DNA of 64,000 bases. Source: a virus. Below the pieces are notes generated by a model. The model worked only from the letters and a program-made list of their open reading frames with translations. It was not told the DNA's origin and made no database searches. The translations under genes and the position numbers were made by a program. How positions within the stretch are numbered: position 1 is the first letter of the stretch; the number at the start of each line of letters is the position of its first letter. Where the stretch lies: positions 96,001 through 160,000 of IMG/VR virus record IMGVR_UViG_3300045988_142974; one strand, given 5' to 3'. Below are positions 23,738 to 39,074 of this stretch, piece after piece.

Positions 23738-23802
23738 AGAATAATCTAATATAGAAGCAATTCTATTCACGGCTGATCAGCCAAATTAAGTGAGGTGATA
23801 AA

Positions 23803-24102: not shown

Positions 24103-24123
24103 TCATGTATAAAAATTTCTATC

Positions 24124-24295
24124 TTGGCGATTCAGCCAAATTTTCCAAATAAAAGTAACAAGAAATATTTTTTCCTATGGTTTTAGCAGACGTGCAAATT
24201 CCATAGGATTTTACAACAAAATAATTAAGAAGAAAGGAATTAAGCAGTAACTCCTGGGTAATTATGGTTACGTAACCTCTGTAAAATAGTGTATT
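24124..24295 (+). promoter_or_regulatory. structured leader of the C5-methyltransferase gene
   Basis: Contains the GATTCA-loop hairpin TTGGC-GATTCA-GCCAA (24124-24139), the terminator-like TCCTATGG/CCATAGGA stem (24173-24208) plus TTTT, SD-like AAAGGAA about 58 nt before the start, and the 12-bp palindrome GGTTACGTAACC (24266-24277). Confidence 0.4.
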
Positions 24296-25219
24296 TTGAC
24301 AGAGAATAATGAAAAAAATAATTCTCAAGGGCTACGAGTATTAAGTTTATGTGGTGGCGTTGAAACAGGATTGTATGCGTTACAGAAGCTCGGAATACCT
24401 ATAAGAGAATATCATACATATGAAATTTTGCCAGAAGCCATAGCAGTTTCTCAGTACCATTTTCCGTTTGTGGTACATCATGGCGATTTATATGAAGCGG
24501 ATTTTGAAGAGTTTAAAGGATTTGATTTACTGTTGGCAGGAACTTGTTGCCAGTCACTTTCAAGAGTGCGAATTGAAAGTAAAGAGGTCAATAATGGTCT
24601 TGATGGTAAGTCAGGAATTTTCTTTAAAGCAATTGAGTGTCTTAGGGCAATTCAGCCCAAATATTTCATGTTTGAAAATGTAATACCAAGTAGTGACGAA
24701 GATCTGAAGACAATGACAGAATGCATTGGTGTAGAACCTATTTTGATTAATTCAGGAAAATTTTCTGCGCAGAGTCGTGAAAGATATTATTGGACAAACA
24801 TACCATTAGGTAAATTACCTGATAAATCTCCATTAGTTTTAAAAGATATTATGGAGAATAGTGTAGATGAGAAATATTTCTATAAGAAAGATTTTGAAAT
24901 CTTGGATATGAGTAAACGTGTATGTGCAGAGTTAAAAGTTAATTCTATGGAAATGAATAGAAGAATTTATAATCCAGATTTTAAGTGCTGCACATTAACT
25001 TGTATAAATGGTGGATATCATGAAAAGAAAGTATTAGATAGTAGCAGACCACGAAAACTTACAGAAGTTGAATATGAAAGATTACAGGGATTACCTGATA
25101 ATTTTACAAAAGTTCAGCTTAATGGTCGTTGGTTATCATACTCAAAAAGATGTAGTTTGATGGGCAATGGATGGAATGAATCTACTGTTGAATGGATCTT
25201 GAGTGGGTTAAGAGAATAA
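24296..25219 (+). CDS. DNA (cytosine-5)-methyltransferase
   Basis: Motif I LSLCGGVETG, motif IV GTCCQSLS, FMFENV, QSRERYYW, motif X GNGW. TTG start. Confidence 0.88.
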   Translation: MTENNEKNNSQGLRVLSLCGGVETGLYALQKLGIPIREYHTYEILPEAIAVSQYHFPFVVHHGDLYEADFEEFKGFDLLLAGTCCQSLSRVRIESKEVNNGLDGKSGIFFKAIECLRAIQPKYFMFENVIPSSDEDLKTMTECIGVEPILINSGKFSAQSRERYYWTNIPLGKLPDKSPLVLKDIMENSVDEKYFYKKDFEILDMSKRVCAELKVNSMEMNRRIYNPDFKCCTLTCINGGYHEKKVLDSSRPRKLTEVEYERLQGLPDNFTKVQLNGRWLSYSKRCSLMGNGWNESTVEWILSGLRE

Positions 25220-25272
25220 CATAATATGAAGTTCGCAGGAAAGCGGAATTTCTTGTGATGAAAGGAGAAAAT

Positions 25273-25995
25273 ATGTATCCAGAATACGATGATTTTTATG
25301 AGCCAAGTGAGGGCGAAATGTTTTTTGATGAAATGAAAGAAAAGTTCAGAGAGATTTTACGTGAAGATGTAAATTCTGAAATCAGTAGATTAACAAAAGA
25401 AAATGCAGAATTAGGACAAAAGGTTAAAGAGTATAATGATAAAAATTTAAATCTTTCTTGTAGAGAAAGAGATTTGCAGTACAAGATTGACAATTACAAG
25501 CGAGAGGTAGAGAAAGACTTTTACAATAAAACAATGGAAGAAGTTTTTGAGAAACTTTTAGAAGACTCAGAAGTGTGGTATGCAGAACGTGTTCCTCATG
25601 AGAAACCAAAATGTAATTTATGTAATGAGGAAAGAAAACTTATTGCAGTATATCCAAATGGTGAAACTGTAACCAAGGAGTGTGAATGTTCTCGACCAGC
25701 ATATATTTATGAGCCAGTAATTTCATTGAATAAAGAGATTAAATTTCATAAGGCGTATAAGCCAAGATATAGTGATAAAAAGAAAGTCTATTTTACTAAA
25801 AATTACAAACCAAACAAGGATTATGCAGATGCATACGATTATTACAGTGAATTCAGAATAGAAAATATTTTTGATGATTTTAATGATGATGTAATTCTAT
25901 ATCACAATGGAAAAAGCTATGGAGAAAAAATTGCATTCAGAAGTAAAGATGCTTGTCAGAAATATTGTGATTGGCTTAATAAGGAGAATAAGTAA
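25273..25995 (+). CDS. hypothetical coiled-coil/Cys-cluster protein
   Basis: ORF track, trimmed to the ATG after AAAGGAG. Confidence 0.6.
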   Translation: MYPEYDDFYEPSEGEMFFDEMKEKFREILREDVNSEISRLTKENAELGQKVKEYNDKNLNLSCRERDLQYKIDNYKREVEKDFYNKTMEEVFEKLLEDSEVWYAERVPHEKPKCNLCNEERKLIAVYPNGETVTKECECSRPAYIYEPVISLNKEIKFHKAYKPRYSDKKKVYFTKNYKPNKDYADAYDYYSEFRIENIFDDFNDDVILYHNGKSYGEKIAFRSKDACQKYCDWLNKENK

Positions 25996-26487
25996 ATGAT
26001 AGTTGGTGTAAAAATATGTGAAGCGAAAGATACAATTAAGAAATATGAAGACCTTGGGTATAAGTTTGTTAGTGAAGAAAATGTAGGTGAAGGATATTTA
26101 AAACTTATATTCAGAGGTTCAATTGTTCCAGAAGAGAATAATATAACAGATATTCAATTCCATGAGGGCGATTTTATAGAAAATAAGGATGGGAAAATTG
26201 GATATATTTCATCCATTTGTCATTGTGATGAGTGTAAAAAACGTGGATTTTTTGAACCAACTATTACATATCTTGATGGAACACCAGATTACATTAGCAA
26301 TTATTCTGTTAAAACTATTTCGTCTGATTATAAACAGATTGGGATTCAGAAGTTTTCAACAGAAGATATATTGAGAAATAAAATAGCTGCACTTGAGAAA
26401 GAGAATAAAGAATTAAAGGAAAAAGTAAATTATTTTATTAATAGAAACGAACTATTAAGGTTGTATATAGGAAGGAATGATAAGTAA
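25996..26487 (+). CDS. hypothetical protein
   Basis: ORF track. Confidence 0.6.
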   Translation: MIVGVKICEAKDTIKKYEDLGYKFVSEENVGEGYLKLIFRGSIVPEENNITDIQFHEGDFIENKDGKIGYISSICHCDECKKRGFFEPTITYLDGTPDYISNYSVKTISSDYKQIGIQKFSTEDILRNKIAALEKENKELKEKVNYFINRNELLRLYIGRNDK

Positions 26488-27270
26488 ATGGCATATATAA
26501 AACAATATTGGCAGAATAAAGAACAAAGAGCGACAATTGCTCGTGAACACACAAAAGAGATGCGGAATAAATATGGTCGTTGTATTCAAACTTCAATTTT
26601 GGGTACAAAAATTTATGATACAAATTCATTTAATAGGGATTTTGAAGAGAATATCGAAGATAAAGATACCAAGATTATTGTAGAGGATATTGATAGTGTA
26701 GGTGCTGTAATGAAATACGGCAATCCAAGTACAGCAGTTCTTAATTTTTCTTCATATAAAAATCCAGGTGGAATGTTTTTAAATGGTAGTAAGGCACAGG
26801 AAGAGTGCTTATGTCACGAATCATTCTTATACAATGTGTTGAGTCAGTTTGTATTAAAGTTTTATGATTGGAATAATCGACATAAGAATAAGGCTTTATA
26901 TTTGAATAGAGGATTATTTTCTCCCGGTGTTTGGTTCTTTAGAGAGAATAGCCATGTAGAGTGTAGTGTTATTACTTGTGCTGCTCCAAATAAGTCGGCT
27001 GCTCAGAAATATCAGAACGTGTCAGACGAAGAGAATACTAAAGCATTAAGAAGTCGAATTAAATTTGTTCTTAATATGGCGAAAGACAACAATGTGAGCA
27101 CTCTTATTTTAGGAGCTTATGGATGTGGAGTATTTGGGCAAGACGCAACAGAAGTAGCGAATATATTTAAAGAATATTTAACTACTACTCATAAATGCTT
27201 CGATACTGTTGTATTTGCTGTTCCAAATGGCAGAGATGGTAACTATGAGAAGTTTGTAAAAGTATTTTAA
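26488..27270 (+). CDS. TIGR02452-family macro/PARG-like protein
   Basis: AVLNFSSYKNPGGMFLNGSKAQEECLCHESFLYNVL and LILGAYGCGVFGQD signatures. Confidence 0.75.
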   Translation: MAYIKQYWQNKEQRATIAREHTKEMRNKYGRCIQTSILGTKIYDTNSFNRDFEENIEDKDTKIIVEDIDSVGAVMKYGNPSTAVLNFSSYKNPGGMFLNGSKAQEECLCHESFLYNVLSQFVLKFYDWNNRHKNKALYLNRGLFSPGVWFFRENSHVECSVITCAAPNKSAAQKYQNVSDEENTKALRSRIKFVLNMAKDNNVSTLILGAYGCGVFGQDATEVANIFKEYLTTTHKCFDTVVFAVPNGRDGNYEKFVKVF

Positions 27271-27287
27271 TAAAGGAGGACGAATAA

Positions 27288-27533
27288 ATGAGTATATGGA
27301 TAAGTACAAAGGATCAAATGCCACCAATAAACGAGGAAGTTTTAATTTTATACAAAGATAAAAAAGATGAACTAAAAGAAGAAAATTTATTTTACAGTGT
27401 TGCAAGTTGGATTAAAGATTCCAATTTTGGGTTTGAGAGATGGTCATATTTTATTGAGTATTCGGGGTATTACGAGGTAGTATATTGGACACCACTTGTA
27501 GATATGCCAAGAATAAAGACACAGGAAACATAG
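27288..27533 (+). CDS. DUF551-like small phage protein
   Basis: MSIWISTKDQMP...YWTPLVDMP pattern. Confidence 0.5.
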   Translation: MSIWISTKDQMPPINEEVLILYKDKKDELKEENLFYSVASWIKDSNFGFERWSYFIEYSGYYEVVYWTPLVDMPRIKTQET

Positions 27534-27560
27534 ATTTCTTGAGGAGTTTAGGAGGGTTTT

Positions 27561-27710
27561 ATGAGAATATATACTGAAATGGAATGCGATATTGGTTGTG
27601 AAGATGGATATTTTTGCGAATATTACAATGAAGAAACCAAAAGTTGTAATTATCCAAATGTTTGTAATGTTTATAAAGAAAATAAAAAGAAACATTGGTG
27701 GCAGAAATAA
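27561..27710 (+). CDS. small Cys-rich protein (49 aa)
   Basis: Hand translation MRIYTEMECDIGCEDGYFCEYYNEETKSCNYPNVCNVY...; SD GGAGGG upstream. Confidence 0.4.
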   Translation: MRIYTEMECDIGCEDGYFCEYYNEETKSCNYPNVCNVYKENKKKHWWQK

Positions 27711-27741
27711 TAGAGAATAATATAACAAGAGGTGTAAATAA

Positions 27742-28155
27742 ATGCAGAATATTAGTATTAAAGGAGTTTGCGATTGTGTAGACTTAGACAGAAATATCAA
27801 ATTGACAAATGGTGCAGTCGTAGTGCAGAAAGAAAATAACAATGTAATAGGTGTTTATTTAGTGATTTCGTTCAGAGATAATAAAAACAAATATGGTAGT
27901 GATAGTACATCAACATATTGTAGTTTGGTAAATCTCGACAATGGGCAATTAGCTTTTGAAGAAAGATGTAGTCGTGCTACAACAGAGAGACGTGTTCTTA
28001 GACATCTAACAAGAGCAGGTTTTAGTTATCCTTATGATCCAAATTCTCATGAGCAGGATAGTAGGTTTTATAATATGAGAATTCAGGTTTATAACAATGG
28101 AAATTACAAAATAAATCTTGAACTTGGTGATGAATATATTATGTATGGTAGATAG
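27742..28155 (+). CDS. hypothetical protein
   Basis: ORF track. Confidence 0.55.
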   Translation: MQNISIKGVCDCVDLDRNIKLTNGAVVVQKENNNVIGVYLVISFRDNKNKYGSDSTSTYCSLVNLDNGQLAFEERCSRATTERRVLRHLTRAGFSYPYDPNSHEQDSRFYNMRIQVYNNGNYKINLELGDEYIMYGR

Positions 28156-28169
28156 GAGGAATAAACCAT

Positions 28170-28460
28170 ATGAAGAAGAAAATTTTAGCAGTTGCATTAG
28201 GATTAACATTGTGTTTTGGAATGACTGGATGCACTGCAAGCGATGATTTGGCAGCCTCTAATATTCCAAATGAACAACAGTCTAAATGTGAACATGAATA
28301 CAAAGAAATTGATTGGCATGTTCAGTCATATTCGGACGGTAGTAATGTTGGTTATGATATTTATTGCCCTAAATGTGAATATGAAATAAATGTTAGTTAT
28401 AAAGAGTGGAATAAAATTCAAGCAGATATGGAATATAAGAAGGAAAATAAAGCACAGTAA
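28170..28460 (+). CDS. lipoprotein (signal peptide + lipobox)
   Basis: MKKKILAVALGLTLCFGMTGC: positively charged N-terminus, hydrophobic core, lipobox-like MTGC. Confidence 0.7.
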   Translation: MKKKILAVALGLTLCFGMTGCTASDDLAASNIPNEQQSKCEHEYKEIDWHVQSYSDGSNVGYDIYCPKCEYEINVSYKEWNKIQADMEYKKENKAQ

Positions 28461-28513
28461 ACCGAAGTTTCTTTTGAATTTTCAAGGGCAAGTCGCTCAA
28501 AAATCCAAGTAAA

Positions 28514-28583
28514 AGAGAATATTACAAAGAAAGGATAATTAGTAGCTGGCTTTAAAGGTTGCAACCGCTTTGGTACTAATTAT
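28514..28583 (+). promoter_or_regulatory. methyltransferase leader: AGAGAATA box, SD-like tract, 49-nt hairpin ending on the start codon
   Basis: AGAGAATA at 28514-28521; AAAGAAAGGA at 28526-28535; perfect 10-bp stem ATAATTAGTA (28535-28544)/TACTAATTAT (28574-28583); apical palindrome GGTTGCAACC (28557-28566). Confidence 0.5.
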
Positions 28584-29389
28584 TGAAACTACAAAATGAT
28601 AAGTATTACACACCAATAGAATTGGCGAATTACTGTTGGGATAAGGTTTTTGAAGTTGTTGGCGAAGAAAATATATCAGAGATTATTGAGCCTAGTGTTG
28701 GGAATGGCAGTTTTCTTCATCATGCAGAGCAACTACCACATTTTGCGTATGATATTGAACCTGAGTGCGAATCTAATTTTACTCATATCTTTAAGCAGGA
28801 TTATTTAAGTGCTGATATAAAGTATCTTTGGGGAAGGCTGATAATAGGAAATCCACCATACGGAAGATGTTTAAATATGGCACAGAAATTTTTTAAGAAG
28901 TCAGTTGAAATTGCAGATACAATTGCATTTATTCTTCCTATAAGTCAATTGAATAACACAAGGTCAATGTATGAGTTTGATTTGGTATATAGTGAAGATT
29001 TAGGTATCCAGCATTATACAGATAGAGATTTACATTGTTGCTTTAATATTTATCGCAGACCTGATAGTGGAGAATTAAATAGTAAACCAGTCGCAAAATT
29101 AAAGGATGTCACTATATATCGGCAGGATAGCAAGGGATATAACGAGAAAGATTTTGATGTTCGTATGTGCTATTGGGGTGATGGATCTGCTGGAAAGATA
29201 TTAAAGGATGATGAACATTATTCGGCAGAATATAAAATCAAGATAAATAATGAAGAATTAAAAGAAGATATTATTGAAGTGCTTACTACATTTGATTGGA
29301 AGGAATATCTAAATTGTATTGCAATGAGAAAAATACAACAATTTCACATTGTCGATGTCTTAAAGAAGAATATCAAAGGAATTAAATAA
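28583..29389 (+). CDS. N6-adenine DNA methyltransferase (gamma-class, TaqI/Eco57I-like)
   Basis: YYTP, motif I EPSVGNGSF, motif IV GNPPYG. TTG start. Confidence 0.8.
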   Translation: MKLQNDKYYTPIELANYCWDKVFEVVGEENISEIIEPSVGNGSFLHHAEQLPHFAYDIEPECESNFTHIFKQDYLSADIKYLWGRLIIGNPPYGRCLNMAQKFFKKSVEIADTIAFILPISQLNNTRSMYEFDLVYSEDLGIQHYTDRDLHCCFNIYRRPDSGELNSKPVAKLKDVTIYRQDSKGYNEKDFDVRMCYWGDGSAGKILKDDEHYSAEYKIKINNEELKEDIIEVLTTFDWKEYLNCIAMRKIQQFHIVDVLKKNIKGIK

Positions 29390-29458
29390 GAGAATAATAC
29401 ATTGAAAGGAGCAAGAGATTTGCTGCAGCGTTAAATCTGGATTTGCTCTGAGTAAGAA
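29389..29458 (+). promoter_or_regulatory. methyltransferase leader: AGAGAATA box, SD-like GGAG, about 40-nt hairpin
   Basis: AGAGAATA at 29389-29396; GGAG at 29408-29411; stems GAGCAA/TTGCTC (29409-14/29443-48) and AGATTT/AAATCT (29416-21/29433-38); apical palindrome GCTGCAGC (29422-29429). Confidence 0.5.
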
Positions 29459-30334
29459 ATGTTAGAGATTAACAAAATATACAACGAAGATTGCTTTGAA
29501 GGTATGAAAAAGATTGATGATAAGTCAATAGATTTTATTTTTACGGATCTTCCTTATAATACGACTAATAATTCTTGGGAATGTGAAATGCCGTTAAATG
29601 ATTATGTCGAGTTATCAGGTCAATATTTTTATGAAACAGATTTATTCAAGTTAGCTCAAGTAACAAATAGCAGTCTCGAATATACAAGAGATTGGTTCTA
29701 CGAGAATAAGAAAGATGGCTTATGGAATCATTACAATCGAATCATCAAAGATAACGGTTGTATTGCACTATGGGCGCAGTCACCTTTTGATAAGAAACTC
29801 GCTTGTAGTAATGAAAAGCTATATCGCTATGAATGGATTATCGAAAAAACCAAAGCAACTGGTCATCTAAATGCAAAGAAAATGCCTATGAAGGCACACG
29901 AAAATGTCTTAATTTTCTATAAGAAACTCCCTACTTACAATCCACAAATGACAGAAGGACATACACCTGTTCATTCTTATACAAAACATACAACAGATGG
30001 TAGCTGTTATGGTGCTACAAAGACTGGTATTTCAGGTGGTGGTAGTACACAAAGATACCCAAGAGATGTTCAGCAGTTCAAGTGGGACACTCAGAAAAGT
30101 AGCTTACATCAATGTCAAAAGCCTGTTGAAGCGTGTGAGTATTTTATTAAAACCTATACTAATCCAGGAGATTTAGTTCTTGATTCGTGTGCAGGAAGTT
30201 GTACCACTGCAGTTGCAGCTTTGAATACAGGTAGAAATTACATATGTTTTGAGAAGGACAAGGATATTTTTGAGGTTGGAAGTAAGAGAGTAGCTGAATA
30301 TGCTAATCAGGATTTATTGATAAGTGCAACTTAA
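29459..30334 (+). CDS. N4-cytosine/N6-adenine DNA methyltransferase (beta-class, PF01555-like)
   Basis: FTDLPYNT (motif IV) precedes DSCAGSCTT (motif I). Confidence 0.85.
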   Translation: MLEINKIYNEDCFEGMKKIDDKSIDFIFTDLPYNTTNNSWECEMPLNDYVELSGQYFYETDLFKLAQVTNSSLEYTRDWFYENKKDGLWNHYNRIIKDNGCIALWAQSPFDKKLACSNEKLYRYEWIIEKTKATGHLNAKKMPMKAHENVLIFYKKLPTYNPQMTEGHTPVHSYTKHTTDGSCYGATKTGISGGGSTQRYPRDVQQFKWDTQKSSLHQCQKPVEACEYFIKTYTNPGDLVLDSCAGSCTTAVAALNTGRNYICFEKDKDIFEVGSKRVAEYANQDLLISAT

Positions 30335-30337
30335 TTA

Positions 30338-30407
30338 AGAGAATAAGAACAATGAAAGGAGACGAGGTTCGTGTACACAAGAAGGAATTCCTTACTCCAA
30401 GTAATTT
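30338..30407 (+). promoter_or_regulatory. methyltransferase leader: AGAGAATA box, SD-like GGAG, palindrome-rich hairpin
   Basis: AGAGAATA at 30338-30345. GGAG at 30358-30361 can pair with CTCC at 30395-30398. Palindromes GTGTACAC (30371-30378) and AAGGAATTCCTT (30382-30393). Confidence 0.5.
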
Positions 30408-31142
30408 ATGAAATATATGGGTTCAAAATCTCGTATAGTTGATAATATTTTACCGATTATTCAAGAAAGATTGCGAGATTATAATATCAAAACATACATA
30501 GAGCCATTTTGCGGCGGCTGTAATGTAATCGACAAAGTTCAATGTGATATAAAAATCGCTTCTGACAATCATAAATATCTTATTGAAATGTTCAAGAATC
30601 TAAATCAGATTCAAAATCTCCCAGAATTTATTACAAAAGAACATTACTCAGATGTAAGAAAGTGTTTTAATAAAGGATTATCCCAATATCCAGATTGGTA
30701 TATTGGTGCAGTTGGCTTTCTTTCAAGCTATAACGGAAGATTCTTTGATGGAGGTTACTCAGGTATCGTATATACAAAAGCTGGAACTGAAAGAAATTAT
30801 TACGATGAAGCTAAGAGAAATTTGTTAGAGCAGATTCCAAGGTTAGAAGATATTCAATTCCAATGTGGAGATTATAAAGAGTTATATTCTGATAAAGTTG
30901 ACTGCTTATTTTATTGCGATATTCCATATAAGGGTACGAAACAGTATGGATCAAGTAAGAATTTTGATTATGACAGATTCTGGAATTGGGCTGAGAAGAT
31001 GAGCGAGAAAAATATTGTCTTAGTCAGTGAGCATGAAGCTCCTTCTGGATGGGAATGTATTTGGCAACAGGAAGTCAAGAGAACGATTGACAATACGAAG
31101 CAAGTTAAAGCAGTAGAAAAGTTATTTGAAATTAGAGAATAA
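30408..31142 (+). CDS. N6-adenine DNA methyltransferase (D12/Dam-like, alpha-class)
   Basis: YMGSKSRI, EPFCGGCNV, CDIPY. Confidence 0.85.
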   Translation: MKYMGSKSRIVDNILPIIQERLRDYNIKTYIEPFCGGCNVIDKVQCDIKIASDNHKYLIEMFKNLNQIQNLPEFITKEHYSDVRKCFNKGLSQYPDWYIGAVGFLSSYNGRFFDGGYSGIVYTKAGTERNYYDEAKRNLLEQIPRLEDIQFQCGDYKELYSDKVDCLFYCDIPYKGTKQYGSSKNFDYDRFWNWAEKMSEKNIVLVSEHEAPSGWECIWQQEVKRTIDNTKQVKAVEKLFEIRE

Positions 31143-31161
31143 ATATCTGGGAGGTGACAAT

Positions 31162-31548
31162 TTGAATGAACCAAAGTTTTATGTACAGGAATTAATATCT
31201 ACGGAATATATGGACAAAAGAGTTTTAATCCTATATCCATATGAACTTAGCAATGAGCCGATATTAAAAGACAATATTCCCAAAATGACAAAAGTGATAA
31301 GAGAATATATAAAAGAGTCTGAAATGTATAGAAAGTGTGTAGATACAATTCCAAATCTTATATGGGATTCTCAAAAATTATCTATGCAGAATGAAGCTGA
31401 TGAACATCAAAGAAAAGCTGATGAACTTGCAGAAATAATGAATGAAGGTATCAGTCCTTATGCGTGGTATGTTAAAGGTAGGTTTGATGGAGAGATAGGT
31501 GGATTTCATTACAATGTAGATAATATAGTTTATTTGGATAGAAACTAG
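31162..31548 (+). CDS. hypothetical protein
   Basis: ORF track, trimmed to the TTG after SD GGGAGGTGA. Confidence 0.55.
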   Translation: MNEPKFYVQELISTEYMDKRVLILYPYELSNEPILKDNIPKMTKVIREYIKESEMYRKCVDTIPNLIWDSQKLSMQNEADEHQRKADELAEIMNEGISPYAWYVKGRFDGEIGGFHYNVDNIVYLDRN

Positions 31549-31605
31549 CAAGAAATTTTGGTTTCAAGGTTTGTCACGAAAACTATATAATATTCGGGAT
31601 AAAAA

Positions 31606-31691
31606 AGAGAATATATCAATGTAATTACAATTAAGGAAAGGAAAGACGTTCACATGTGAGTAAAGCTGCGCAGCTACTATGGTGAACAAAT
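31606..31691 (+). promoter_or_regulatory. methyltransferase leader: AGAGAATA box, SD-like tract, about 40-nt hairpin
   Basis: AGAGAATA at 31606-31613; AAGGAAAGGAAAG at 31633-31645; stem GTTCAC/GTGAAC (31648-53/31682-87); palindromes CACATGTG (31651-58) and AGCTGCGCAGCT (31664-75). Confidence 0.5.
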
Positions 31692-32528
31692 TTGAAAAAT
31701 ACATATATTAAATCGCCTCTAAATTATGTCGGAGGCAAGTATAAGTTACTACCAATTATTGTACCAATGTTTCCAGATAAGATAAATACTTTTGTAGATT
31801 TATTTGGTGGAGGTTTTAATGTCGGTATTAATGTAAAAGCTGATCATATTATCTACAATGATATATGTGAGCAGGTAGTTGGTTTTCTAAGATATTTACA
31901 AGGTTCAAATATTGAAGAAGTATTATATAAGATTGATTCATATATTAGTAAGTATGGATTAACGAAAGAAAACAAAGAAGGATATTTACTGTTTAGAAAA
32001 GAATATAACACAGGTATTAAAGATCCAATTAAATTCTATACGCTTTTATGTTATGCGTTCAATAATCAAATCAGATTCAATTCCAAAGGTGAATATAACA
32101 TGCCTTTTGGTAAAGACAGATCCAGTTTTAATCCCACTCTTAGACAAAAATTTATAGATTTTCATAAGCAACTGAATGAAATAGATTGTAGTTTCTTAAA
32201 TATTCCATTTGAGAGATTTGATTTTTCTGATTTTACGGAAGGTGATTTTGTTTATGCAGATCCACCATATTTTAATTCTGTTGCTACATACAATGAAAAC
32301 GGTGGCTGGACAGAAGAAATGGAGAATAAATTACTAGAGACTCTTGATGCTTTGAATGATAAAGGCGTTAAGTTTGCATTAAGTAATAATCTCAAATATG
32401 ACAATCCATTACTTGATAAATGGAAAGATAAATACATAGTTCATTATTTAAAGCATGATTATAGTAACTGTAATTACCAGAAAAAGGATAAGAGTGCAGA
32501 TTGTGAGGTATTAATCACAAATTATTAA
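31692..32528 (+). CDS. dam: Dam-family N6-adenine DNA methyltransferase
   Basis: YVGGKYKLL, DLFGGGFNV, ADPPY. TTG start. Confidence 0.88.
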   Translation: MKNTYIKSPLNYVGGKYKLLPIIVPMFPDKINTFVDLFGGGFNVGINVKADHIIYNDICEQVVGFLRYLQGSNIEEVLYKIDSYISKYGLTKENKEGYLLFRKEYNTGIKDPIKFYTLLCYAFNNQIRFNSKGEYNMPFGKDRSSFNPTLRQKFIDFHKQLNEIDCSFLNIPFERFDFSDFTEGDFVYADPPYFNSVATYNENGGWTEEMENKLLETLDALNDKGVKFALSNNLKYDNPLLDKWKDKYIVHYLKHDYSNCNYQKKDKSADCEVLITNY

Positions 32529-32533
32529 AAATC

Positions 32534-32576: not shown

Positions 32577-32615
32577 AAAGCAAAGTAAAACCACGTTTCA
32601 TTTAAGGAGGTAAAA

Positions 32616-32984
32616 ATGGAAGATATTGTAAACATTATTGAAATTAATAAATATATGTATTTTGATAAAAATTGTGGAGTATTTCGTTTAACATCAGAAG
32701 CTTCAGAAATTATCTATAGACAGAAAAAAATTATTTGCAGTTATTCAGGTGCAGATGAATGGATAAATTTCTTCACGTTAGAAATGATGAATCTTTATAC
32801 AGGTTCAAGTCCATATAATTATGTAATAAGAACTTGCGATCATCACGAAGCATTCCCAAGAATTTTTAAAGAGAATAAAAAAGGGTTAAGTGATTGGGTT
32901 GAAAAGTCTCTTACGGAAGAATGGGGAAAGAGAATGTATAAGATGATTGAAAATATTATTGATGACTTACCAGTATGTGAATAG
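32616..32984 (+). CDS. hypothetical protein
   Basis: ORF track; SD AAGGAGGT upstream. Confidence 0.55.
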   Translation: MEDIVNIIEINKYMYFDKNCGVFRLTSEASEIIYRQKKIICSYSGADEWINFFTLEMMNLYTGSSPYNYVIRTCDHHEAFPRIFKENKKGLSDWVEKSLTEEWGKRMYKMIENIIDDLPVCE

Positions 32985-33501
32985 GAGAGTGAATTATATA
33001 GGTAAATCATTAGAATTTGTAAAAGAACGAATTGCATCAGGTCAGTGCAATGGTATGGAAAATAATAAATATGAATCCATGATTGAGCAGGATATACGAG
33101 AGTTATTTACGGTTATTACTTACACCAAAGATGAAACAATTTTAATAGATGTTCCTTATCTTAAAGGTGACAAACCTTATTTTAATGTAATTATTAAGCA
33201 CGATCCAGATGCAGATTTTGAATATTTCACAATGCAGCGTTGCAATTGTGATGGAACGTTTGTATTCTTTCAAGATTTAATGGGTGAGTGCATAGATAAA
33301 ATGATTCATCTTAAAACCTGTAATGTAAATAAGGAGATTCCAAAAGATTTAACTGGATATTCTATCATCTATACTGTCGGAGATTTTGTATTGGCAGAAG
33401 AGTTTGGAAAAGAATTTGCAACTGAAGAAAAGCCTTGGATGCAGAGTAGATTCACTGCTATGTTGCCAATTAAGTTTGATATAGTAAGGAATGGAGAATA
33501 A
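32947..33501 (+). CDS. hypothetical protein (start uncertain, probably about 32990)
   Basis: ORF track. The track ATG overlaps the previous gene by 38 nt, and the SD AGGAGAG at 32983-32989 has no canonical start at the right distance. Confidence 0.45.
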   Translation: MKILLMTYQYVNRRVNYIGKSLEFVKERIASGQCNGMENNKYESMIEQDIRELFTVITYTKDETILIDVPYLKGDKPYFNVIIKHDPDADFEYFTMQRCNCDGTFVFFQDLMGECIDKMIHLKTCNVNKEIPKDLTGYSIIYTVGDFVLAEEFGKEFATEEKPWMQSRFTAMLPIKFDIVRNGE

Positions 33502-33505
33502 TAGT

Positions 33506-33757
33506 ATGGAGTTATCACAAGATGAAAGACAAAAATTTTTAGAATTAATAGATAAAGTAAGTCCATGTGCTGCAATTTCTGAAAAAGAAAATCTTGAAAA
33601 GTTTAAAGAGTGGCTGGATAGTGATAGGTCAAAAAGAGTTACATTTGTTGAAGCTCCAAAAATATTTAAAGATCAGGTTGGAAATGACAAAGTGCTTCTT
33701 ATACCAACAAATGACGAAGCTATAAAGCCAATAAGAGTAATATTCGAAGGAGAATAA
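33506..33757 (+). CDS. hypothetical protein
   Basis: ORF track, trimmed to MELSQDE. Confidence 0.55.
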   Translation: MELSQDERQKFLELIDKVSPCAAISEKENLEKFKEWLDSDRSKRVTFVEAPKIFKDQVGNDKVLLIPTNDEAIKPIRVIFEGE

Positions 33758-33761
33758 CAAT

Positions 33762-34040
33762 ATGAACAAAAGACAGAAAAAGAAGTTATTTAAACAGACA
33801 CTTATTAAGGTTAGAAAACTGCATCCACAGAAGGGTGATGTGATTTGTTTTCAACCAGATTTAGATTGGATTGATGCTGAAACTATGTGCCAGTTTATGA
33901 AAGTTTATTCGAATAATGATGTTTTCGGTAAATTGAAGTTAGCTTTTGTACCTGCTGATATTAAGCAGCTTAGACATAAAGGGGACGCTCAGATATATAT
34001 TGATAAGTTACAGAGTATTGTAAATCAGATGGGAGAATAA
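33762..34040 (+). CDS. hypothetical protein
   Basis: ORF track. Confidence 0.55.
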   Translation: MNKRQKKKLFKQTLIKVRKLHPQKGDVICFQPDLDWIDAETMCQFMKVYSNNDVFGKLKLAFVPADIKQLRHKGDAQIYIDKLQSIVNQMGE

Positions 34041-34247
34041 ATGATTAAAAATAAGGCTTTAGCACAAATTTTAAAGAATCAATATTTAATTTTATATTAT
34101 TTACGACACTGCGAGTCTTGTAAAAATCTAATGGAGGACATTAATGAAATTACTGATAACGCATTAATAAAAACTGAATATTTTACAGACAAATTGTTGC
34201 ATAGAAGGCGAACAAGAAAGAAGCATTTCCTTCAAGTTTTTGAATGA
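34041..34247 (+). CDS. hypothetical protein
   Basis: ORF track. Confidence 0.5.
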   Translation: MIKNKALAQILKNQYLILYYLRHCESCKNLMEDINEITDNALIKTEYFTDKLLHRRRTRKKHFLQVFE

Positions 34248-34290
34248 AAAGAGAGAATAAACACATAGAAAATAGAAAGAGAGGATACAT

Positions 34291-36489
34291 ATGAGAGTAT
34301 TACTTTTATTAAGAGGCTCTGCTGGTTGTGGAAAATCAACTTGGATTGAGCAGAATGGATTAAAGTCATATGCATTATCAGCGGATGATATTAGATTACT
34401 GTGTCAGAGTCCAGTATTACAACCTGATGGAACAGTAGGGATTAGTCAGAGTAATGATAAAACCGTTTGGAAGACATTGTTTAATTTACTTGAAATTCGT
34501 ATGCAGAAAGGTGAGTTTATAGTAATTGATGCTACAAATTCAAAAACATCTGAGATAAACAGATATAAGCAGATGTGTGAAACATACAGATATAGGATGT
34601 ATTGTGTCGATTTTACAGATATTCCAATTGAAGAAGTAAAGAAAAGAAATGTCAACAGAGAGGAATTAAAGAGAGTTCCTGATGAAGCAATCGAAAAAAT
34701 GTATTCACGTTTCAAGACTCAGAAAATTCCTTCTGGTATTAAGGTAATTAAGCCAGATGAGTTAGATTCTATTTGGATGAAGTTATTTGATTTATCTGAA
34801 TATAAGAAAATTCATCATATCGGAGACGTTCATGGTTGCTATACAGCGTTAAAGAAATATATTGATGACAATGGCGGTATTAAAGATGATGAATTTTACA
34901 TCTTCTGCGGTGATTATGTAGATAGAGGTATTGAAAATGCTGATGTTGTTAAGTATCTGATTTCTATTAAGGATAAGAAAAATGTCCTTATGCTTGAAGG
35001 AAATCATGAAAGATGGCTTTGGTTATGGGCTAATGATTGTACAAGTAAGTCTAAAGAATTTGAACTTGTAACAAAGCCACAGTTAGAAGAAGCAAAGATT
35101 GATAAAAAGGATGTACGTCAGCTTTATAGAAAATTTGGACAGTGTGCTTATTATAGATATGGAGAAAATATTTATTTAGTAACTCATGCAGGTTTAAGTG
35201 TATTACCAGATAATCTTACATTTGTTGCAACAGATCAGATGATTCATGGAGTTGGTAATTACAATGATTTTGAAAAAATTGCAGAGACATTTGCTGAAAA
35301 AATGCCATCAAATTATTATCAAATTCATGGTCATAGAAACACTAAACAAGTTCCAATTCGTGTGAATGATAGAGTATTTAATCTTGAAGGAAGAGTTGAA
35401 TTTGGTGGGAATTTAAGATGTGTTCAGCTTGATAAAGATGGTATGTACGAAATAGAAATTCATAATGAAGTATTCAAAACACCCGAAATGAGAGAAGAAC
35501 AGAGTGTAACAAATAGTTCTGTTGCTGATGTAATTATTTCATTAAGAGCAAATAGATACATTCAGGAAAAGAAATTTGGTAATATTTCTTCTTTCAATTT
35601 TACGAACAAGGCTTTTTACGACAAGGTATGGGACGAGCAGACTACAAAAGCAAGAGGTTTATATCTTGACACATTTAAGGGAAAGGTAGTAGCAAGGGCT
35701 TATGATAAGTTCTTTAACATCAACGAGCGACCAGAAACAAAATTTGATATGCTACAGAATAAGCTTCAATTCCCTGTTACAGCATATGTAAAAGAAAATG
35801 GTTATTTAGGTATTGTAAGCTACGATGAATACAATGATGATTTATTTATTGCAAGTAAATCTACTATTGACAGTCAGTTTGCACAATGGCTCAAAGAAGC
35901 TATTTACAATCAGATTACAGAAGAAAATAGAGAAAAAATGAAACAGTATGCGAAAGATAATAATGTGTCATTTGTATTTGAAAATGTTGATATGAAAAAT
36001 GATCCGCATATTATTGAATATCTTGAAAGTAAGTTATATCTATTAGATATTGTTTATAATCAGATGGATTTTGCTAAATATGATTATGAAACTATGTGTG
36101 ATATTGCTCATCAGCTTGGATTAACTCCAAAAGAAAAAGCATTTGAGATTGCTAATTGGCAGGATTTTTATGATTGGTACTATGATATTCTTGAAGAGGA
36201 TTATGAATACAATGGTAGAAAAATTGAGGGATTTGTAATCGAAGATAGTGTTGGATATATGACAAAACTGAAGCTTGCATATTATAACTTTTGGAAGTTT
36301 ATGAGAGCAATTTCACATGAAGCTATTAGAAATGGATATATTAAAAAGACATCTGCTTTAACAACTCCTATTGCTAATGAGTATTATGCATGGGTAAGAA
36401 AGTTGCATGATGTCGATGATATTGATTCAATTCCAAAAGATATTTGTACATTGAGAAGATTATTTTTTAAAGACAAATTAGGAGAATAA
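34291..36489 (+). CDS. trifunctional RNA repair enzyme: polynucleotide kinase - metallophosphoesterase - RNA ligase (Pnkp-like)
   Basis: P-loop GSAGCGKST; calcineurin-type phosphatase motifs GDVHGC, GDYVDRG, GNHE, HGHRN; C-terminal ligase lysine motif VKENGYLG (KxxG, Rnl1/Trl1-like). Confidence 0.8.
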   Translation: MRVLLLLRGSAGCGKSTWIEQNGLKSYALSADDIRLLCQSPVLQPDGTVGISQSNDKTVWKTLFNLLEIRMQKGEFIVIDATNSKTSEINRYKQMCETYRYRMYCVDFTDIPIEEVKKRNVNREELKRVPDEAIEKMYSRFKTQKIPSGIKVIKPDELDSIWMKLFDLSEYKKIHHIGDVHGCYTALKKYIDDNGGIKDDEFYIFCGDYVDRGIENADVVKYLISIKDKKNVLMLEGNHERWLWLWANDCTSKSKEFELVTKPQLEEAKIDKKDVRQLYRKFGQCAYYRYGENIYLVTHAGLSVLPDNLTFVATDQMIHGVGNYNDFEKIAETFAEKMPSNYYQIHGHRNTKQVPIRVNDRVFNLEGRVEFGGNLRCVQLDKDGMYEIEIHNEVFKTPEMREEQSVTNSSVADVIISLRANRYIQEKKFGNISSFNFTNKAFYDKVWDEQTTKARGLYLDTFKGKVVARAYDKFFNINERPETKFDMLQNKLQFPVTAYVKENGYLGIVSYDEYNDDLFIASKSTIDSQFAQWLKEAIYNQITEENREKMKQYAKDNNVSFVFENVDMKNDPHIIEYLESKLYLLDIVYNQMDFAKYDYETMCDIAHQLGLTPKEKAFEIANWQDFYDWYYDILEEDYEYNGRKIEGFVIEDSVGYMTKLKLAYYNFWKFMRAISHEAIRNGYIKKTSALTTPIANEYYAWVRKLHDVDDIDSIPKDICTLRRLFFKDKLGE

Positions 36490-36493
36490 ATAT

Positions 36494-36988
36494 ATGAAGA
36501 TAGAATTAATCAAATTAAAATTCAATGATACTTGTACATATAAGCATAAGCCATTCACTTATTGCTGTGATGAAATTCAAAATGATAAGGCTATTGTATT
36601 TACAGGTGAAGATTTAGTATGCAACGATACTTTTGGATTAGTAGTAAGAGATTCAGATGATAATATAATTCCTCAATTTTGTACTTCATATACTGAAACA
36701 TTTACCTCTTGGGGAGATGAATACGAACAGACAGACAATTATCCAATTCAGTTTTGTCCTCATTGCGGAGAGAAGATTGAAATTTCTGTTATAGAGGAGA
36801 TTGATGTGTCTGATAAGTACAATGAACTGACTAAGCAACGTGAAGAATTATGGAAGAAGTGTCAGAGAACGGATAGTAAGAAGAAAGAATTTGAATTAAG
36901 AGAGCAGGTTGAAAAACTTGATAAACAGATTGATAGTTTCTATTGGTTAGATGAGTGGAAAGGAGAATATTACTATGGCAGTATTTAA
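36494..36988 (+). CDS. hypothetical protein (zinc-ribbon CPHCG)
   Basis: ORF track. Confidence 0.55.
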   Translation: MKIELIKLKFNDTCTYKHKPFTYCCDEIQNDKAIVFTGEDLVCNDTFGLVVRDSDDNIIPQFCTSYTETFTSWGDEYEQTDNYPIQFCPHCGEKIEISVIEEIDVSDKYNELTKQREELWKKCQRTDSKKKEFELREQVEKLDKQIDSFYWLDEWKGEYYYGSI

Positions 36989-37250
36989 AAATTTCAAAGA
37001 TGATGAGTTAATCGTAAGCTGTAAATGTGGATGTGATAAAGGTATTCACCTTAAGATTCATGACTATGAAGATGGGGATTATGCTTTCTTAACATATACA
37101 AACGGTAATTTTTATACTCAGCAAAGACCATTCTTTGAGAAGTTGAAGAAAATTTGGGCGATTATTTGTAATAAGGATTTCTATTATTCTGATGTTGTAA
37201 TGACAAAGGATGATTTTAAAGAGTTTAAGGAATGGGTAAATAGAAAGTAG
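36975..37250 (+). CDS. hypothetical protein
   Basis: ORF track, trimmed to MAVFKNF after AAAGGAG. Confidence 0.55.
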   Translation: MAVFKNFKDDELIVSCKCGCDKGIHLKIHDYEDGDYAFLTYTNGNFYTQQRPFFEKLKKIWAIICNKDFYYSDVVMTKDDFKEFKEWVNRK

Positions 37251-37356
37251 AGTCACAGTAAATTCAGGTTTCCTTTGTATACAAAGAGAAAAATTAAAGC
37301 AATGATAAAATCAATGATTTTTATTAACTATAAAATATAAGAGAGGTGAACGATTA

Positions 37357-37986
37357 ATGTCTTTAGCATATAAAAATGACACGTACAACAACTATAATGG
37401 CGAATATGAAATGGGTTCATTAAATAAATTTGCACAAGCAGAAAGAAGATTGTCAACAAAGAAACAAGTATTGGATGATATGAAGAATGAATATGACCTT
37501 ATTGAACAACAAACATTTCGCATTTATAAAGAGAATATTCAGTATATGCTACTTGATCAGCCATCTACTATTAAAACGTGTAGAGAATGGTTAAATATGT
37601 TATCAAAGAATCAGGATACTGATGGTAACAAGCTTGATAAAAGAAAGAAGTATAAAGAAAAGGAAACATATGATTGGTATATTAATTATATTAAAAAGCT
37701 TCTTGATATTGAGTATATGAATGATGTTAAATTCATTGATTTTAATTTCGGTCAAGCTACTAATATTCAGTTTGAATATAAAGAGCATAATTGGTGTTTA
37801 GAAATTCCTCATATTAAAGCTATCAAATTAGATGCATATAAGAATTATGGTGGTAGTGTATTTAAACTTGCGTTAGTACACAATGATACAGAATATAGTT
37901 GTAGTTGGTCGCAGTTTGGCTCTACATATGAGGAAGATGAATTAAGAGATATTATGACACAAGGTATTGAGAAATATTGTAATTAG
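37357..37986 (+). CDS. hypothetical protein
   Basis: ORF track. Confidence 0.55.
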   Translation: MSLAYKNDTYNNYNGEYEMGSLNKFAQAERRLSTKKQVLDDMKNEYDLIEQQTFRIYKENIQYMLLDQPSTIKTCREWLNMLSKNQDTDGNKLDKRKKYKEKETYDWYINYIKKLLDIEYMNDVKFIDFNFGQATNIQFEYKEHNWCLEIPHIKAIKLDAYKNYGGSVFKLALVHNDTEYSCSWSQFGSTYEEDELRDIMTQGIEKYCN

Positions 37987-38045
37987 TGGGTGATAACTTC
38001 ACAGGAAAGCAACATATCATCCGATTTAAGAAAGGACAAGTACAA

Positions 38046-38525
38046 ATGAATTTGAATAAAATTAGAAGTGAAGATTTGATTTTTAGTAATGAAATTGAAG
38101 ACGATAGAACTAATACATATCTTACACTAAATGATTATGATTGGATGAATTATAATCTGTCTACTCGTTTTAGAACAGAAGAGATGGGTGTATTAGAAGT
38201 CGAGTTTGAATTTTGTGGTTTTTCTACTTCACAAATGAATGTAAAACAGACATTAAATGGTAAGGTTCAGGAAATTACATATGAATATCCAACAGATATT
38301 TTCAGTAAAAATTTGATTAGGTTCTTAGAAAAACATATCAGATACTGGAATGAAAAATACGCATTTAATGGCGAAGAAGAAGTTATAGATTTCTTTAATG
38401 AAGTTCTCGATAAAGGGACTGTCAAAGATGTTGCTGAAATCAATAAAAATGACAACAGACCACAATGCTGCATAGATCACGATAAGTATTTTTCAACATG
38501 TGACACTTGTGAGTTTGGAGAATAA
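38046..38525 (+). CDS. hypothetical protein (track start 37986 GTG; ATG 38046 has the better SD)
   Basis: ORF track. Confidence 0.5.
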   Translation: MNLNKIRSEDLIFSNEIEDDRTNTYLTLNDYDWMNYNLSTRFRTEEMGVLEVEFEFCGFSTSQMNVKQTLNGKVQEITYEYPTDIFSKNLIRFLEKHIRYWNEKYAFNGEEEVIDFFNEVLDKGTVKDVAEINKNDNRPQCCIDHDKYFSTCDTCEFGE

Positions 38526-38553
38526 CAAAAAATTATAAAGGAGAATATTAAAC

Positions 38554-38865
38554 ATGGAAACAATTTTAAGATTATTAGCAGAGAACCCAGAAAGTTTAGG
38601 AGAGGTAGTAAAGACATACATTACAAAGTATAAAGAGCCTGTATATGATGTTCTGAAGGAACTCATGATTATTGCAAAGGATTATTCTGAGAATACTGAA
38701 TATCCTGCAATTCAGGCGAGAACCAAGAAGAATATGTTTGATGCATATGTAAGTGTTGGTTTTACAGAGGATCAGGCATTAGCACTTATGATTAACGATA
38801 ATATTCAGCTTATGAAGAACATTCAGAAGTCAGTTAATAATACTTCCGTAAAGAAGAGTAAGTAA
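38554..38865 (+). CDS. hypothetical protein
   Basis: ORF track. Confidence 0.55.
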   Translation: METILRLLAENPESLGEVVKTYITKYKEPVYDVLKELMIIAKDYSENTEYPAIQARTKKNMFDAYVSVGFTEDQALALMINDNIQLMKNIQKSVNNTSVKKSK

Positions 38866-39074
38866 TGGTTTCGCAGTAAACCAATCTTTCTTTTGAAAAT
38901 TTTTAATCATATCTAAGCCATTCGGCTATGGGAATCCCAGTAACAAGGAAAAATAATATTTTCTTATAGTGGTTGCAAACACTAGGAAAATCAATAATTT
39001 TATAATACAGAAAGGTATAAATAGTAAACCTATAGGTAATTTAGATTGCGCAATCTCTATGTAAATAAGAGATT
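38866..39074 (+). promoter_or_regulatory. structured leader of the PP-loop gene
   Basis: Contains the hairpin TGGTTT-CGCAGT-AAACCA (38866-83) followed by TCTTTCTTTTG, the hairpin AGCC-ATTC-GGCT (38916-27), and SD-like AAAGG (39010-14) 61 nt before the ATG. Also has palindromes CCTATAGG (39029-36) and AGATTGCGCAATCT (39043-56), and the stem AATCTCT/AGAGATT (39052-58/39068-74) abutting the ATG. Confidence 0.4.

Follow-up and report, generated by a model that had tools for sequence, protein, structure and literature searches.

Invertible start segments and palindrome-bearing leaders before the DNA-modification genes of a phage

How does a gene start its translation when the usual Shine-Dalgarno (SD) sequence is missing just in front of it? 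The question is raised by five DNA methyltransferase genes (M1 to M5) and one PAPS-reductase-like (PP-loop) gene in a 64,000-nt stretch of viral DNA, positions 96,001-160,000 of IMG/VR record IMGVR_UViG_3300045988_142974, which we call the window. It has 32% G+C, and its plus strand carries nearly all genes. The original prediction, made from the letters alone, held that these six genes share one design, in which an SD-like tract lies far upstream and a long hairpin with perfect palindromes fills the interval up to the start codon. Our best explanation, to which we give somewhat better than even chances as a whole, is that the leaders serve as modular cassettes for translation initiation at DNA-modification genes and fall into two related kinds; their source would probably be a large temperate gut Firmicutes phage. 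The leaders of M1 and of the PAPS-reductase-like gene (class I) are short DNA segments found in both orientations, and the leaders of M2 to M5 (class II) are fixed. The sequence features described for the six leaders were confirmed, but two of the leaders are invertible DNA and the design is not unique to this phage.

SD strength was calculated as the duplex energy with the 3' end of 16S rRNA (anti-SD energy) for about 92 plus-strand open reading frames (ORFs), most of which gave -9 to -17 kcal/mol. The six genes had -1.9 kcal/mol for M1 (start at 24296), -2.9 for M2 (28583), -4.9 for M3 (29459), 0.0 for M4 (30408), -7.6 for M5 (31692) and -1.7 for the PAPS-reductase-like gene (39075), and we confirmed that none of them has a start-proximal SD. 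The companion claim, that nearly every other gene has one, holds for about 85%, but about ten genes that had not been flagged are weak too. Purine-rich tracts were found where they had been described, with 47, 47, 46 and 46 nt between tract end and start for M2, M3, M4 and M5. Distant tracts also precede M1 and the PAPS-reductase-like gene, though at 56 and 59 nt instead of the 58-61 nt first given. All listed palindromes are present, and the hairpins can be drawn as proposed, including a perfect 10-bp stem (28535-44/28574-83). Palindromes of at least 10 bp are not enriched in the window overall (67 against 92 expected); the six leaders (809 nt) contain eight against 0.85 expected, about ten-fold, and a ninth straddles the end of the M3 gene.

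Through comparison with relatives, we found that both class I leaders occur inverted. The interior of the PAPS-reductase-like leader is exactly reverse-complemented in two loci (L083 and L084) relative to four others (L081, L082, L085 and L086) and the window, and the flanks are identical. Among 80 loci with M1 homologues, the segment at the start of this C5-methylase gene is flipped in L163, L164, L170, L190 and L191, and the breakpoints are the repeats at 24161-73 and 24313-25. A diverged lineage of the element is flipped in L203, L209 and L214 against L204, L206, L208 and others, and a further one in L218 and L220 against the forward L215-L217. Three sequence-diverged lineages of the C5 element therefore show both states, with ten flipped loci among about 74 from IMG/VR. 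A profile search for the element revealed 124 copies, 106 forward and 18 flipped, and six exact interior sequences were present in both orientations. Metagenome contigs of ENA, scanned for exact matches with a 25-nt core and oriented by a long flank signature, added 50 forward and five flipped copies (L440, L448, L455, L465 and L480).

The inverted repeats that bound these segments are A/T-rich, follow the pattern GAAWT...TTTTT and measure 12-13 bp, or 15-16 bp in the diverged lineages. Those of the PAPS-reductase-like switch (38951-62/39091-102) are 12 nt long and 83% complementary in the window, and in relative L081 a 9-bp perfect core, TAGTATTTT/AAAATACTA, was read from the alignment. A stem-loop that we call hairpin 1 was observed at 38967-38984 of the window and in L039, L087 and L171; it lies 5' of the SD-like tract in class I and in some class II leaders. 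Its stem covaries (TAGTG/CACTA, GGCG/CGCC, GTGATA/TATCAC) and its loop GTTGCAAA is conserved (variants GTCGCGAAT and GTCATGAAT). A similar structure exists at about 62064-62110, in the 61976-62143 gap, and hairpin 1 may be a protein-binding site.

In the forward (ON) orientation, which both switches have in the window, the gene is joined to its start codon. In the flipped orientation the start codon is gone and TAG or TAA stands against the retained codons: the flipped C5 state has a stop directly before codon 6 and reads '...KP*EKNNSQ...', and the flipped PAPS-reductase-like state has TAA directly before codon 6, with no start left. Since the start codon is lost, the gene should be OFF in this state, and methylation would presumably be switched accordingly. 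The full-length ORF is retained in nine of the ten flipped C5-methylase genes, and the TTG start of M1 is homologous to starts in other lineages. In relatives, a second C5 methylase absent from the window follows M1 and has its own invertible cassette (repeats AAGAAATATTATTTT / AAAATAATAATTC), which is ON in L171 and OFF in L170 (both at 3886-4030) and was detected in 12 other loci. All four ON/OFF combinations of the two adjacent switches were seen, which indicates independent flipping. In four more ENA loci (L446, L451, L468 and L490) a type-A cassette is joined at its right repeat to another gene (N-terminus ...NNYCELNGRPLRLLI), so the class I cassette is modular at the repeat.

With repeat-bounded segments in both orientations and breakpoints at the repeats in IMG/VR as well as ENA, we are highly confident that the class I leaders are flipped by programmed inversion, seen here as natural sequence variation. 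In the proposed mechanism, a site-specific recombinase would invert a 128-139-bp segment that carries the initiation region and the first 5-6 codons, and because the switches would flip independently, a phage or lysogen population would become mixed in its modification states. The tyrosine recombinase at 4354-5334 is a candidate invertase, and could equally be the prophage integrase. It is the sole recombinase among 28 window proteins scanned, mostly the longer of about 90 ORFs; it is kept across the phage family (103 viral contigs) and is present on many switch-bearing contigs.

Beside this recombinase gene, and divergent from it, lies a gene of an XRE-type helix-turn-helix repressor (5355-5579, minus strand), and the pair looks like a lysogeny module. 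Palindromes AGATATATCT and CAAGATATATCTTG are located in the gap between the two, and 5590-5700 belongs to the same region. Some ENA contigs with the methylase switch are as long as 0.3-1.9 Mb and point to an integrated prophage; together with the recombinase beside the repressor gene, they suggest that the phage is temperate. A near-identity search of the window against isolated phages gave no match. The best protein matches in isolates, from Brevibacillus and Thomasclavelia phages, are about 35% identical, and the close relatives, hundreds in number, are gut-sample contigs of IMG/VR with lengths of 100-200 kb.

The class II leaders were never seen inverted. No inversion of the M2, M3, M4 or M5 leader was found among the relatives examined; all 108 matches to an M3-type profile were on the plus strand, and no small-scale inversion between hairpin arms was seen in M5-type and M2-type relatives. 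The M2 leader (minimum free energy -14.2 kcal/mol, z = -1.69) is conserved in relatives, and the M5 leader in about 25 of them. In 46 of 50 distinct upstream contexts, with at least ten different genes in front of it, the M3 leader hardly changes and always has RGAGAATAA at its left junction, while the M3 protein itself falls to 76% identity. In the remaining four contexts M3 directly follows another methylase and has an ordinary GGTGAT SD in place of the leader, so that the leader can be considered an alternative to a normal ribosome-binding site. The same type of leader also precedes a methylase only 25-30% identical, and elsewhere M5-like, M2-like, M1-like and PAPS-reductase-like genes; M4, at 92-99% protein identity, occurs with two unrelated leaders. 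One leader thus serves different methylases and one methylase has different leaders, which shows that leader and gene are separable.

A 19-codon upstream ORF, MKGDEVRVHKKEFLTPSNL, was noticed in the M4 leader (30352-30411), with its stop overlapping the ATG at 30408. In all relatives this stop abuts the M4 start (TTATGA, TGATGA or TAATGA), which suggests termination-reinitiation coupling in the M4-type leader only. An upstream ORF or leader peptide as a general feature was rejected: a frequent nonsense variant cuts the one in the M3 leader, ACG stands in the M4b leaders, and of the genome examples described below most have no start, though wTG AAA GGA recurs.

The original prediction also pointed to a AGAGAATA box at the beginning of four leaders. 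The box does open them, but it is not specific to leaders, being a junction motif throughout the window with 41 copies, every one on the plus strand, against 8 expected. Together with GGAGAATAA it forms the usual junction of this phage between a gene end and the next start (for example at 13665, 25211, 31134, 41069, 48645 and 61975); it frequently overlaps the preceding stop codon, with the next start 4-6 nt further on, and it also marks the left boundary of mobile methylase cassettes. Scans for sigma-70 promoters and terminators gave results at or below chance, and by eye the leaders contain no convincing promoter.

The leaders of M3 and M4 belong to a scaffold that reads AGGAG, N3-7, GAGRTTT, an 8-bp palindrome, NN, T, the palindrome AAA-N6-TTT and RCTCC. 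Through a pattern search over one genome per GTDB species, we found it in 44 genome loci, almost all in Clostridia. The downstream genes, judged by N-terminal motifs and clustering, are mostly DNA methylases of several classes or PAPS-reductase-like, with a few other phage genes. Pfam confirmed the downstream methylases in L404 and L414 and a PAPS-reductase-like gene upstream of the leader in L414. Pfam searches of neighbouring ORFs showed a terminase near L404 and a weak, sub-threshold baseplate-protein match near L414, so these two loci, the two that were checked, appear to be prophage-borne. Over 84 distinct scaffold instances the tract has an anti-SD energy of -11.8 +/- 1.0 kcal/mol, on par with ordinary SDs, and is separated from the start by 41-54 nt. 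Between the helix 3' end and the start there are 9 nt in 66 of the 84 (79%) and 8-10 nt in 77. The pair beside GGAG covaries (C-G 39, U-A 22), and the sequence 5' of the tract is not conserved among the Clostridia genome loci. The class II leader is apparently a widespread and undescribed hairpin leader of phage methylase genes.

Pairing was counted on a 38-sequence alignment in fixed-register columns, a MAFFT alignment of ten leaders having misaligned GGAG. Pairing in the palindrome slots reaches 95.8%, where shuffles give 65.6%, and none of 500 shuffles was as high; cells changed on both sides number 139 against 36, a value that again none of 500 shuffles reached. The drawn structures exist in the leaders, but their folding energies are unremarkable. 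Compared with dinucleotide shuffles, the six cores were no better than chance (z = -1.69 to +0.89), and the whole leaders gave z = -2.55 to +0.09, so that structural support comes from the relatives only. Of the 11 independent imperfections in the two classes, none is A.C; read on the sense strand, every one is T.G or G.T (G.U). These G.U-only deviations fit selection on a single-stranded sense molecule, and would equally fit a deamination bias of the sense strand.

Table 1. Positions of the switches, leaders and related genes in the window
Feature	Position	Strand	Details
Tyrosine recombinase gene	4354..5334	+	Pfam PF00589, E = 2.4e-14; PHROG 'integrase', 1.2e-31
Left inverted repeat, C5-methylase switch	24161..24173	.	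AGAAATATTTTTT; pairs with 24313-24325; 13 nt, 92% complementary, 139 nt between
Invertible segment, C5-methylase switch, ON	24174..24312	+	139 bp; reverse-complemented in relatives; hairpin 1 24173-24208; tract AGAAAGGAA 24231-39; CCTGGG 24253-58; palindrome GGTTACGTAACC 24266-77; stem CTCTGT/ACAGAG 24277-82 / 24299-304; start TTG 24296
Right inverted repeat, C5-methylase switch	24313..24325	.	AAAAAATAATTCT; within coding sequence; from pairing and breakpoints in relatives
M1, C5 cytosine DNA methyltransferase	24296..25219	+	Pfam PF00145, E = 2.3e-20
Fixed M2 leader	28461..28582	+	AGAGAATA 28514-21; tract AAAGAAAGGA 28526-35; stem 28535-44/28574-83; palindrome GGTTGCAACC 28557-66
M2, probable N6-adenine DNA methyltransferase	28583..29389	+	PHROG 799 'DNA methyltransferase', 2.9e-15; N-terminal YYTP motif; no match in Pfam scan
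Fixed class II M3 leader	29389..29458	+	AGAGAATA 29389-96; GAAAGGAG 29404-11; slot 1 GCTGCAGC 29422-29; slot 2 AAATCTGGATTT 29433-44; helix 3' strand TTGCTCT 29443-49; start 9 nt past helix
M3, N6/N4 DNA methyltransferase	29459..30334	+	Pfam PF01555, E = 3.4e-24
Fixed class II M4 leader	30335..30407	+	AGAGAATA 30338-45; GGAG 30358-61; GTGTACAC 30371-78; AAGGAATTCCTT 30382-93; CTCC 30395-98; start 9 nt after CTCC
M4, D12-class N6-adenine methyltransferase	30408..31142	+	Pfam PF02086, E = 1e-15
Fixed M5 leader	31549..31691	+	AGAGAATA 31606-13; tract AAGGAAAGGAAAG 31633-45; stem GTTCAC/GTGAAC 31648-53 / 31682-87; palindromes TCACATGTGA 31650-59 and AGCTGCGCAGCT 31664-75
M5, D12-class N6-adenine methyltransferase	31692..32528	+	Pfam PF02086, E = 6.5e-35
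Left inverted repeat, PAPS-reductase-like switch	38951..38962	.	AAATAATATTTT; from pairing and alignment with relatives
Invertible segment, PAPS-reductase-like switch, ON	38963..39090	+	128 bp; flipped in L083, L084; hairpin 1 38967-84 (loop GTTGCAAA); AGAAAGG 39009-15; ACCTATAGGT 39028-37; AGATTGCGCAATCT 39043-56; stem TCTCT/AGAGA; ATG 39075 and first 5 codons
Right inverted repeat, PAPS-reductase-like switch	39091..39102	.	AAAATACTAATT; within coding sequence
PAPS-reductase-like (PP-loop) gene	39075..40124	+	Pfam PF01507, E = 5.1e-13; PHROG 424, 2.8e-45

What would a class II leader do? A strong 16S-complementary tract (GAAAGGAG or AGGAGG) lies within a helix or directly 5' of it. This helix surrounds one or two short hairpins that are perfect palindromes, and ends 9 nt (M3 and M4), 4 nt (M5) or 0 nt (M2) before a start without its own SD. 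In the mechanism that we favour, a 30S subunit would capture the tract, with unpaired GAAA as a toehold. The folded insert would keep the tract physically near the start, so that initiation would depend on the fold and probably be held low. Class II would then be a ribosome-binding site bridged by structure at the RNA level, a reading which we hold only tentatively. It is favoured because the tract is a genuine anti-SD partner, because GAAA or the extra G of GGAGG is conserved outside the helix, and because the helix end is kept at an SD-like distance from the start.

As in split SDs, the 16S-complementary tract stands more than 15 nt upstream and no SD is found at normal spacing. The M5 and M2 leaders are looser variants with the tract just 5' of the stem, and closing the stem leaves about 7 and about 0 nt, respectively. 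An intervening hairpin that leaves a free SD 5-11 nt from the start therefore fits M5, where the tract comes to stand 3 + 4 nt from the TTG, and M2 is too close, at 0-1 nt. The predicted hairpin that juxtaposes or occludes the SD is compatible with the relatives, given the tract energy, the 9-nt spacing and the G.U-only deviations of the scaffold, but it is not demonstrated, the SD being inside the stem in the M3 and M4 leaders and the folding energies being unremarkable.

Several points weigh against our explanation. The GGAG of M3- and M4-type leaders is paired with CUCC, and after capture the path from SD to start would be about 13-14 nt, where the usual spacing is 7-9 nt. Shuffled sequences have folding energies as good as those of the six leaders. 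In every palindrome the two bases at the very centre are complementary as well, and since adjacent bases cannot pair within one hairpin, a simple intramolecular RNA hairpin is insufficient. In class I the tract cannot act by bridging, since a separate weak SD hairpin follows it about 45 nt downstream. No family of the Rfam 15 covariance models reached the gathering score anywhere in the window, and at E <= 10 over 28440-31720 there were just four matches at chance level, to models of snoRNA, lncRNA and miRNA; coding sequence holds three of them, and the fourth is antisense over the start of the M2 leader. For class I, the orientations are known from assembled contigs, one per contig, and not from reads within one sample. 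The recombinase may be an integrase, given its place beside the divergent repressor gene, and nothing ties it to the repeats.

The alternative that survives best, which we still consider rather unlikely, is that tract and hairpin control mRNA stability or the level of translation without any bridging. In one version, similar to STAB-SD, a 30S subunit on a non-initiating SD, or a 5'-terminal stem-loop, would block a 5' exonuclease; GAAAGGAG is what we take to be the STAB-SD core of Agaisse and Lereclus (1996). In the other, an SD decoy or occluding structure would keep the methylase low and might be opened by some factor, as Com opens mom of phage Mu. This reading agrees with the conservation of the tract in class I, where it is too distant to act as an SD, and with its pairing with UCCU or CUCC in both classes, and the AGAGAATA just 5' could be a promoter or a processing site. 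A stabiliser, however, needs no fixed spacing, and 92% of class II instances keep the helix end 8-10 nt before the start; moreover, the Clostridia genome loci show no conservation 5' of the tract.

Alternatively, the leaders may act chiefly at the DNA level as recombination linkers, the AGAGAATAA junction and the scaffold mediating the shuffling of methylase cassettes between phages, with palindromes that are duplex or cruciform features instead of RNA elements. We regard this as unlikely. The constant RGAGAATAA junction behind many different upstream genes, the exchange of leaders and methylases, the joining of the class I cassette to another gene at its right repeat and the symmetric palindrome centres all agree with it. 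Shuffling would explain how the leaders are distributed, but not why a 16S-complementary tract stands at a fixed distance from the start, and the strand-specific G.U-only deviations favour a single-stranded sense molecule. The DNA-level role is compatible with our explanation, and it and the stabiliser or decoy role are not mutually exclusive; we treat both as live alternatives.

The second reading offered by the original prediction, that each palindrome is the target of the downstream methylase and that its methylation feeds back on expression, did not hold up, and we consider it very improbable. Autoregulation at an own site is known for CfrBI and related systems. The slots do resemble type II sites (CTGCAG, GAATTC, TGCGCA, GCGGCCGC, GTCGAC and others), some such sites are avoided in the window (CTGCAG 2 against 9.9 expected, GAATTC 13 against 32.8), and C-to-T changes at CCGG and GCGC centres look like deamination of 5-methylcytosine. 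The palindromes, however, vary freely without following the enzyme, which leaves the reading unsupported. Although the palindrome core of M1 can be ACGT, ATAT, GTAC or GCGC, the enzyme hardly varies from motif VIII to motif X, the part that we took for its target-recognition region. The methylases of L414 and L433 are 91% identical and have no slot in common (CTGCGCAG/TCATGA against GGCTAGCC/GTATAC), CTGCGCAG stands before both a D12-class and an M2-like methylase, and M4 keeps 92-99% identity behind unrelated leaders. The PAPS-reductase-like gene, which is no methylase, has the same slots.

Other 6-bp palindromes are strongly avoided too over the whole window (observed/expected: ATCGAT 0/9.8, GTTAAC 0/8.0, GGATCC 0/5.6, CAGCTG 2/10.3, CTTAAG 2/10.7 and GATATC 12/28.7). 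One of the two CTGCAG sites of the window is in the M3 leader.

That the two orientations are assembly errors or old fixed rearrangements is extremely unlikely: although the evidence comes wholly from assembled contigs and the short contig L438 shows an inverted-duplication artefact, about 25 flipped loci come from two independently assembled collections (IMG/VR has 18, though the same contig can account for several of them, and ENA has 5-6), belong to three diverged element lineages and three different genes, break exactly at the 12-16-bp repeats in every case, and have identical interiors in both orientations and OFF genes with intact ORFs. Two further candidates were rejected. An integron attC site does not agree with a hairpin that travels with the downstream ORF and not the upstream one, and by eye the leaders contain no GTTRRRY core, though no search for cores, attI or an IntI-type integrase was made. 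Bypassing of the gene 60 type was dropped on anatomy.

Among known systems, 'partial intergenic' invertons that overlap a gene start are a recognised category in bacteria (bioRxiv 10.1101/2023.03.11.532203). As in fimS and the RecV switches of C. difficile, a short repeat-bounded segment is found in both orientations and connects the gene to, or disconnects it from, its expression signals. The class I switches differ in belonging to a phage or prophage, in carrying the ribosome-binding region and first codons with no demonstrated promoter, in recurring on several DNA-modification genes of one genome, and in having a recombinase that is only a candidate. Phage-encoded programmed inversion is shared with the G segment of Mu and the C segment of P1, both cited in PMC13501310. 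In those phages kilobase segments swap tail-fibre C-termini through the serine invertases Gin and Cin with an enhancer; here 130-bp segments would be on/off switches of methylase genes, and the candidate enzyme is a tyrosine recombinase. Phasevarions and the 'epigenetic invertons' of hsdS are cellular type I or type III systems that change specificity through hsdS shuffling or turn on and off through repeat slippage (PMC7672463). Reversible switching of methylation capacity in a clonal population would be common to both, as far as sequence tells here, but class I concerns orphan type II-like phage methylases and a PP-loop enzyme, and flips the start region.

For class II, genes 38 and 25 of T4 are the nearest parallel. 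In work attributed to the Gold lab and to Nivinskas and co-workers in 1999, their SD reportedly flanks a hairpin and ends 5-11 nt from the AUG. A distant upstream SD and an intervening hairpin that shortens the physical distance are shared, and the likeness is rough for M5 (about 7 nt) and M2 (about 0 nt); in the M3- and M4-type scaffold, by contrast, the SD is a strand of the closing helix. The STAB-SD of Bacillus, a 5' mRNA stabiliser, likewise has a GAAAGGAG(G) tract far from the start in Firmicutes, and the leader sequence resembles GAAAGGAGG, but STAB-SD has neither fixed start spacing nor an enclosing helix nor palindrome slots; the term occurs in PMC5737220. The promoter-early stem-loop (PeSL) cassettes of T4-type phages, said to have been described by Arbiol and co-workers in 2010, are stem-loop regulatory sequences at shuffling junctions. 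Like them, the leaders are short, conserved, flank variable ORFs and coincide with such junctions; unlike them, they serve one functional gene class, contain an SD-like tract and have no promoter shown.

In the literature searched, we found no report of a phage inverton on a modification gene. A study of 2026 (PMC13501310) presents putative invertons of gut viruses which, to the knowledge of its authors, are the first to come from viral genomes assembled out of gut metagenomes, and methylases are unmentioned there. If our explanation is true, independently flipping 130-bp start cassettes would give combinatorial modification states, one switch per modification gene allowing a single phage genotype to show many modification patterns. 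Phage methylases decide which hosts can be infected, and also expose the phage to defences against modified DNA. The switches could thus represent bet-hedging between restriction-modification and modification-dependent defences. In lysogens that carry them the host methylome would become phase-variable, possibly with epigenetic heterogeneity of the host.

The class II leader would offer a small and widely distributed system in which initiation from a distant SD, held in place by structure, can be tested in Firmicutes. Its puzzle is that the two slots are perfect palindromes and yet of any sequence. The symmetry of the slot centres would imply duplex recognition, as double-stranded DNA or an RNA dimer, beyond a simple hairpin. 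With considerable doubt, we might speculate about a phase-variable phage methylome together with an undescribed Clostridia leader whose palindromic slots are read as a duplex, as a programmable sensor.

A recurring module was also observed in the window, in which ATTTTCC(A)AA comes after a hairpin (for example TTGGCGATTCAGCCAA or GAGCGATTCAGCTC), with AGAGAATA a few nucleotides further on. It is found at 10965-11017, 23765-23790, 24123-24150, 47545-47583, 47928-47978 and 49125-49173. In relatives its hairpin is a perfect GGCTGATCAGCC, and the module may combine a terminator with a promoter.

Genes for RNA repair and for NAD/ADP-ribose functions form a cluster at 19788-23047, 26488-27270, 34291-36489 and 45185-46042. 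The cluster comprises an RlaP-like protein, a CCA-adding/poly(A) polymerase, SIR2, a PARG/macro protein, a Pnkp-like kinase-phosphatase-RNA ligase (732 aa) and a Thg1-like protein, and is probably a counter-defence toolkit. At 13888-15654, three paralogous genes of about 192 aa each stand in tandem (repeat families D1, D2 and D15).

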